From: Escherichia coli
GTDB lineage: Bacteria > Pseudomonadota > Gammaproteobacteria > Enterobacterales > Enterobacteriaceae
DNA length: 64,000 bases
NCBI RefSeq assembly: GCF_003018255.1
Contig: NZ_CP027440.1
Strand: one strand, 5' to 3'
Of the stretch, positions 53,678 through 53,826 are shown piece after piece; the stretch's first letter is position 1, and each line of letters opens with the position of its first letter. Below the pieces are notes generated by a model, which was given only the letters and a program-made list of their open reading frames with translations, made no database searches and was not told the DNA's origin. The translations under genes and the position numbers were made by a program.

Positions 53678-53826
53678 TGGCGCAGCCCTCAATGTTGACG
53701 TTGCAGAAATTGCAATGTGACGTTGTGAATATATCAATTTCCGCAATAAATTTCCTGTCATATAGTGAATTCAATCTCGCAAACGCGAACCGAACAATAA
53801 GAAGCACAACATCACGAGGAATCACC

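Follow-up and report, generated by a model that had tools for sequence, protein, structure and literature searches.

The ilvY-ilvC divergent control region of an Escherichia coli strain and the TTG start codon of ilvY

Two divergent genes separated by a short spacer raise a double question, that is, where each of them begins and which signals are housed in the DNA between them. In the window (the whole stretch of 64,000 nucleotides of Escherichia coli DNA that was analysed, to which all coordinates refer), this question concerns ilvY and ilvC. The data discussed below lead us to regard this segment, almost certainly, as the E. coli ilvY-ilvC divergent, overlapping promoter-operator region, organized as a standard LysR-type switch; none of the observations speaks against this reading. 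This control region has already been described, and the finding is correct but ordinary; the only additions made here are the GTG/TTG polymorphism with its frequencies and the mapping of operators, promoter elements, and GcvB site to the coordinates of the window (Table 1).

Table 1. Features of the ilvY-ilvC region and positions at which it differs from K-12 (window coordinates)
Feature	Position	Strand	Remarks
ilvY CDS	52787..53677	-	296 aa LysR-type regulator IlvY, stop codon included; PGAP of an identical genome, NF008722, Pfam
Upstream in-frame TTG	53605..53607	+	source of the spurious 565-aa ilvC ORF; within ilvY
ilvY initiation codon TTG	53675..53677	-	GTG at the same codon in K-12
ilvY 5' leader	53678..53724	-	about 47 nt; all E. 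coli spacer variation lies here
ilvY Shine-Dalgarno GAGGG	53686..53690	-	8 nt 5' of the TTG; predicted, from consensus
IlvY operator O1 ACGTTGCAGAAATTGCAATGT	53698..53718		core dyad TTGCA-N5-TGCAA 53701-53715; T-N11-A 53702-53714; upstream recognition site, also the site of autorepression; centre at about -65 relative to the ilvC start
Degenerate dyad IR2 TTGTGAATATATCAA	53723..53737		centre 22 bp away from that of O1 and at about -43 relative to the ilvC start
Probable ilvY extended -10 TGATATATT (TGnTATATT)	53728..53736	-	inside O2; tentative hexamer assignment
IlvY operator O2 ATATATCAATTTCCGCAATAA	53729..53749		contains IR3 53732-53746 (about -34); activation site over the ilvC -35 region
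ilvC -35 position TTTCCG	53738..53743	+	poor, as expected for an activator-dependent promoter
Upstream in-frame ATG	53759..53761	-	source of the spurious 324-aa ilvY ORF
ilvC -10 hexamer TATAGT	53761..53766	+	T, A, and final T invariant in 10 sequences
ilvC 5' untranslated leader	53773..53826	+	about 54 nt; transcription start at about 53773, 7 nt 3' of TATAGT
GcvB sRNA pairing site CACAACATCAC	53805..53815	+	abuts the ilvC Shine-Dalgarno; predicted by complementarity
ilvC Shine-Dalgarno GAGGA	53816..53820	+	6 nt before the ATG
ilvC CDS	53827..55302	+	491 aa ketol-acid reductoisomerase; PGAP, NCBIfam NF003557
K-12 difference	53677		start codon, GTG in K-12 and TTG here
K-12 difference	53678		linked -1 base
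K-12 differences	53681 and 53682		in the spacer between Shine-Dalgarno and start
K-12 difference	53691		next to the Shine-Dalgarno
K-12 difference	53706		A to G, centre of the O1 dyad

Ends of the two genes and start codon of ilvY

On the reading of the sequence, the spacer spans positions 53678-53826 and has the length of 149 bp given in a preliminary description of this DNA, running from the TTG of ilvY (53677) to the ATG of ilvC (53827-53829), the latter opening the plus-strand reading MANYFNTL. On the minus strand, positions 53677-53675 are TTG, followed by GAT TTA CGC GAT CTG AAA ACC TTC, and the translation is (M)DLRDLKTF. When a 901-nt query around the spacer was compared with 5426 complete E. 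coli genomes, 5425 of them gave a match, the chromosome of E. coli DETEC-S792 (NZ_CP116067.1) being 100% identical; the PGAP annotation of this chromosome gives the same ends for ilvY and ilvC as those of the window, flanked by ilvA and ppiC in the order ilvA-ilvY-ilvC-ppiC. Concerning the allele itself, it appears uncommon, since at least 99% identity over the 901 nt (53300-54200) was found in just 131 of 5431 E. coli records; most records are 95-99% identical, and DETEC-S792 is the sole one at 100% among the matches listed. On the far side of ilvY, the ilvA open reading frame starts with two adjacent ATGs (51243-51248; MMADSQ...), and the 514-aa product annotated by PGAP implies the use of the second one, at 51246.

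The identities of the two products leave little to discuss. IlvY scores 510.7 bits against the NCBIfam equivalog NF008722 (cut-off 246, E = 9.1e-154), covering positions 1-292 of the 293 of the model, and in its TTG-initiated form it contains the Pfam domains HTH_1 (PF00126, residues 3-62) and LysR_substrate (PF03466, residues 89-293); the former lies in the usual place for LysR-type regulators. Residues 1-490 of IlvC align to positions 1-490 of 491 of the NCBIfam KARI equivalog NF003557, with 1028 bits. Moreover, ilvY is divergent from and adjacent to ilvC both in the window and in all the 11 other genera fetched. The identities and the ends of both genes, as well as the position of the ilvY start codon, are direct observations on this DNA.

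The list of open reading frames contains two longer forms that overlap one another over the spacer, namely a 324-aa frame on the minus strand (from 52787 to the ATG at 53761) and a 565-aa frame on the plus strand (from the TTG at 53605 to 55302). They had been considered artefacts in the preliminary description and, indeed, both frames are found as it gave them and are chance open frames. The upstream TTG of ilvC lies 168 nt 5' of the ilvC transcription start. As for ilvY, one might imagine a regulator of 324 aa carrying a 28-residue N-terminal extension, in that the frame is open from 53761, begins with ATG, and is open in K-12 too; besides, some gene callers choose this form, and public protein sets include it as P0002, with 324 aa and 755 member sequences. 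However, this ATG shares its first base (53761) with the ilvC -10 box, and transcription of ilvY would begin about 37 nt downstream of it (as taken from PMC5002191), which leaves it outside the transcript. The models of IlvY and HTH_1 begin at residues 29 and 31 of the long form, the first position of NF008722 aligning to residue 29, which is the TTG codon at 53677. PGAP does not call the long form, and P0002, the one protein of this length that was found, corresponds to this E. coli ORF in its long call.

The comparison with homologues points in the same direction. In the preliminary description it had been proposed to align the N-termini of IlvY from other species; among the 120 best homologue clusters in a search of 5.8 billion proteins, 104 place exactly one residue ahead of DLRDLK, while the others comprise short extensions with a Met right before the Asp, proteins called too short at the N-terminus or otherwise aberrantly, and the long E. 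coli form of 324 aa. The outcome that the same description had named as speaking against the TTG, namely homologues whose N-terminus is extended from an ATG further upstream, was not encountered among the 11 other genera, since every one of them has a stop codon in frame 5-19 codons before the homologous start, that is, within the 28 codons of the E. coli extension, which is not conserved. The codon homologous to the TTG is ATG in eight of these 11 genera or contigs (Cronobacter, Shimwellia, Winslowiella, Cedecea, Buttiauxella, Erwinia, Kosakonia, and AP025685) and GTG in the other three (Citrobacter europaeus, Klebsiella michiganensis, and a metagenome contig); in seven of the 11, including the GTG-bearing Citrobacter and Klebsiella, it is the only in-frame start following the stop. 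On the whole, we consider the 324-aa IlvY very improbable.

Two further starts have to be weighed against the TTG at 53677. The first one is the in-frame TTG at 53692-53690, five codons upstream, which sits in the predicted ilvY leader with the frame open down to 53677 and would yield an IlvY of 301 aa. Yet, in K-12 and in SCPM-O-B-9427 this codon reads TCG, and ST131-type strains have TTA; the GAGGG Shine-Dalgarno overlaps it, no purine-rich element of its own precedes it, and the resulting extension is carried by no homologue in the 120 clusters, so that we judge this start to be no more credible than the 324-aa form. The Shine-Dalgarno in question is GAGGG in five of the eight aligned E. 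coli strains and AAGGG in the remaining three. The second one is Met25 (53605-53603), the first downstream ATG in frame, with the TTG left unused; a few database entries do begin with MHVSPSTL (P0097 and P0099), but such a start would remove residues 3-24 of the HTH_1 DNA-binding domain. Residues 2-25 are almost unchanged across genera and are therefore translated, which makes initiation at Met25 the least credible of the three alternatives, with hardly any chance of being right.

Thus, the TTG at 53677 is retained as the start of ilvY in this strain, the PGAP annotation, position 1 of NF008722, the placement of HTH_1, the predicted GAGGG Shine-Dalgarno 8 nt 5' of the codon, and the N-termini of homologues all being in agreement with the initial proposal. 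This assignment rests on comparative and annotation evidence, since no experimental IlvY N-terminus was found in the literature searched and a PDB sequence search returned no solved structure matching IlvY at E <= 1e-20. The significance of confirming the short, TTG-initiated call is small beyond annotation quality; gene callers that prefer ATG over-extend both ilvY and ilvC into a spacer that holds promoters and operators.

Operators, promoters, and a predicted GcvB target in the spacer

The operators footprinted by Wek and Hatfield have the sequences ACgTTGCAAaaaTTGCAAtGT (O1) and aTATatCaatttccGcaATAa (O2) (PMC5002191). Both of them are found in tandem between ilvY and ilvC, O2 being identical to that of K-12 and O1 differing by one change in its central spacer; the tandem IlvY operators that the spacer had been expected to hold are therefore there, in a form that matches the published K-12 sequences (PMC5002191). 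The same account describes three TTGCA-N5-TGCAA dyads, with their centres at -65, -43, and -34 relative to the ilvC start. A repeat finder, on its own, returned a direct repeat with a spacing of 22 bp (family D1, O1 versus the second dyad) and an inverted repeat (I1) pairing O1 with O2; the assignment of the degenerate dyad IR2 is based on the former, on an invariant block in a 10-sequence alignment, and on the positions given in PMC5002191.

The exact dyad TTGCA-N5-TGCAA occurs once in the 64 kb (53701-53715), versus 0.15 expected, at least one match being present in 14 of 100 shuffles. When up to two mismatches were allowed, the 64-kb window contained 42 matches versus 45.8 expected, that is, no enrichment, and only the exact match is informative. 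The absence of a window-wide enrichment is what is expected for a regulator with one target. The presence of the operator dyad in the spacer is more than chance. Indeed, in all the 11 other genera the O1 dyad keeps its offset from the ilvY start, 24-38 nt on the upstream side, and the alignment of 10 sequences from nine genera revealed that the O1 half-sites are invariant, together with TTGTnAATATATCAATTTnnGCAA, which embeds O2 and the probable extended ilvY -10, and with TTCCTGT, after which the T, A, and last T of TATAGT, the ilvC -10, are likewise shared by all. Within O2, AATATATCAATTT..GCAA is shared by all 10 aligned sequences. These operator sequences and their conservation across genera are directly observed. 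The one difference of O1 from K-12 (53706) falls in the centre of the dyad, at a position varying freely between genera, and such an A to G change in the spacer of the dyad would be neutral.

A search for LysR-type T-N11-A motifs, also put forward in the preliminary description, did find one at 53702-53714, whose centre (53708) corresponds to -65 from the ilvC start; the motif alone is too weak to inform. The typical LysR-type layout is present, with a T-N11-A near -65 and an activation site over the -35 region, these positions depending on the transcription start taken from the literature. An additional IlvY site inside ilvY was also considered, that is, the sequence TTGCTGATATTGCAA at 53447-53461, 216 nt into the coding sequence and with one mismatch to the O1 dyad. 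It was rejected as a coding by-product; the conserved peptide LLQYQQL is encoded there, and the synonymous positions are free to vary, with 1-3 mismatches to the dyad among 13 sequences (two in K-12).

Concerning the promoters, transcription starts and operator positions were transferred from K-12 through a secondary account (PMC5002191), which places the centre of O1 at +17 of the ilvY transcription start and IR1 at -65 from the ilvC start. The centre of O1 at +17 puts the start of ilvY transcription at about 53724; just 4 nt separate this position from the best -10 hexamer, and it may thus be off by 2-3 nt. According to the same source, O2 overlaps the ilvY promoter boxes (PMC5002191). A sigma-70 and terminator scan of positions 53500-54000 gave zero matches, which fits weak, factor-dependent promoters and lends them no positive support. 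The idea that the substitutions in the start region might preserve a structure in the ilvY leader RNA was rejected on the folding of four allele types, which turned out to be less stable than shuffled sequences (z from +1.4 to +2.2) and to have no shared structure. Likewise, an Rfam scan of 52500-54300 returned no family at threshold. As an aside, the Rfam DUF2693-FD RNA was hit inside ilvY (53314-53362) with 19.6 bits versus a gathering score of 44.5 and E = 0.38, most likely by chance.

The ilvC leader in the spacer also holds the known pairing site of the GcvB sRNA, predicted here by complementarity, which the preliminary description did not list. The site CACAACATCAC is a perfect 11-nt complement of nucleotides 67-77 of GcvB (GUGAUGUUGUG) in the annotated K-12 gcvB, a complementarity that is directly observed and whose chance expectation is about 0.002 for the two lengths. 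Since 63 of 500 shuffled leaders paired with GcvB at least as well as the ilvC leader in RNAduplex, the prediction leans on the exact 11-mer. According to PMC9299463, the repression of ilvC translation by GcvB has been verified for Salmonella (Sharma et al. 2011, as cited there), with a target that E. coli has kept. Such GcvB targets have C/A-rich sites near the ribosome-binding site; here, a C/A-rich 11-mer fully complementary to GcvB R1 stands just 5' of the ilvC Shine-Dalgarno, an arrangement that is the same as that reported for E. coli ilvC.

A separate observation concerns an 11-nt inverted repeat, 91% complementary, between positions 53717-53727 (GTGACGTTGTG), at the O1-O2 junction, and the GcvB target at 53805-53815. 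The former arm resembles the GcvB seed; it lies outside the ilvC transcript and nearly all outside the ilvY one, which makes a role at the RNA level unlikely, and the repeat is probably due to chance.

Variation of the ilvY start and of the ilvA/ilvY junction within E. coli

Over an aligned stretch of 221 nt, the window and K-12 differ at six positions, all of them in or at the ilvY leader (Table 1). The comparison of eight diverse E. coli strains revealed that the variation is confined to positions 53677-53717, positions 53719-53826 being invariant, and that 53677 and 53678 always change together, each start allele having its own -1 base. In order to count the alleles, 33-nt queries were used, in which every 28-nt seed word spans the start codon, against 5426 complete E. 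coli genomes, of which this method left about 300 unclassified. The TTG allele of the window type was found in at least 3276 of the 5426 genomes (at least 60%) and GTG alleles in at least 1847 (at least 34%), the latter including 1774 of the K-12 type and 73 of a second GTG haplotype. Hence, TTG is the majority allele of ilvY in E. coli and the GTG of the K-12 reference is a minority one; the TTG start initially proposed holds for this strain, with the refinement that it is a natural majority allele and that K-12 has GTG. In most of the other Enterobacterales genera sampled, the ilvY start is ATG.

TTG and GTG are standard but weaker initiators; according to a bioRxiv survey, this group gives 10-100% of the AUG output, and about 3-4% of annotated starts are TTG (10.1101/063800). 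It is tempting to speculate that the two alleles might represent a lineage-specific tuning of IlvY dosage, as opposed to neutral drift between weak starts, an idea that we regard as rather unlikely. If it were true, the inducibility of ilvC and the supercoiling-coupled divergent promoters would be tuned as well. In practical terms, the frequencies of TTG and GTG are relevant when K-12 ilvY-PilvC cassettes or start-site annotations are moved into other strains.

The opposite end of ilvY is also variable. In the window, the stop codons of ilvA and ilvY meet at 52787-52790, while K-12 carries between the 3' ends of the two genes a 58-bp insertion with a REP-like hairpin (GCCTGATA/TATCAGGC; locus 1877-1927), which is absent here and adds one codon to ilvY, so that IlvY has 297 aa in K-12 and 296 aa in this strain. 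At least 1201 of 5426 E. coli genomes have the junction without the insertion, and the same overlap of 4-7 nt between the ends of ilvA and ilvY occurs in AP025685, Cronobacter, Shimwellia, Cedecea, Buttiauxella, and Kosakonia. Since the overlap is common to these genera, the insertion-free junction looks ancestral. An [quoted passage not shown] has been reported (Sameshima et al. 1989, cited in PMC4161252), and the lack of the K-12 intergenic hairpin in insertion-free strains bears on this published convergent termination (PMC4161252).

A further ilv locus was noticed in NZ_CP081793.1 ("plasmid unnamed2" of E. coli CT01, 57.9 kb), where ilvY, ilvC, and ppiC are found in the chromosomal order (909-3920), with 84% identity to the window, a 275-bp spacer, and dhaK and an arabinofuranosidase gene as flanks. 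Rather than an ilv locus carried by a plasmid, this molecule appears to be a piece of the chromosome of a different enterobacterial species.

The divergent switch and its relatives

The working of the region as a LysR-type switch may be outlined as follows. IlvY, translated from the TTG at 53677, would bind O1 and O2 cooperatively. O1 would be contained in the 20-odd nucleotides of ilvY that are transcribed first and, owing to this closeness to the transcript start, its occupancy would repress ilvY with or without the inducer. O2 would overlap the weak -35 region of ilvC, and the binding of acetolactate or acetohydroxybutyrate, the substrates of IlvC, to the IlvY-DNA complex would activate ilvC transcription from about 53773. 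The pairing of GcvB at 53805-53815, beside the ribosome-binding site, would provide an added control of the ilvC leader. Cooperative binding to O1 and O2, autorepression, inducer-dependent activation, and the supercoiling coupling of the divergent promoters have been described (PMC5002191, PMC6483228), and the Reg-Seq data indicate that IlvY represses both promoters without the inducer (PMC7567609). Binding, cooperativity, the response to the inducer, the transcription starts, and GcvB repression are thus taken from the literature on K-12 and Salmonella and should apply to this strain by analogy; the transfer from K-12 is reasonable because positions 53719-53826 are identical in the two.

The closest known system is, in fact, the ilvYC region of K-12 itself (Wek and Hatfield 1986, 1988; Rhee et al. 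1998, 1999; summarised in PMC5002191 and PMC6483228). It shares with the window the same genes in the order ilvA-ilvY-ilvC-ppiC and the 149-bp spacer, and O2, both -10 elements, and the ilvC leader with its ribosome-binding site are identical, positions 53719-53826 matching base for base. It differs in having a GTG start in place of TTG, with the linked -1 base, in two changes in the spacer between the Shine-Dalgarno and the start, in one change beside the Shine-Dalgarno, and in the A to G substitution in the non-contacted centre of the O1 dyad.

A similar organization is exhibited by oxyR-oxyS and cynR-cynT, two divergent LysR-type systems with three dyads (PMC5002191). In these systems the regulator is likewise divergent from its target, and they share with ilvYC the layout, with a strong dyad near -65 and weaker overlapping dyads near -43 and -34, as well as the behaviour, the regulator being autorepressed and activation being inducer-dependent. 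Compared with them, the half-site TTGCA/TGCAA and the acetohydroxy acid inducers are specific to IlvY.
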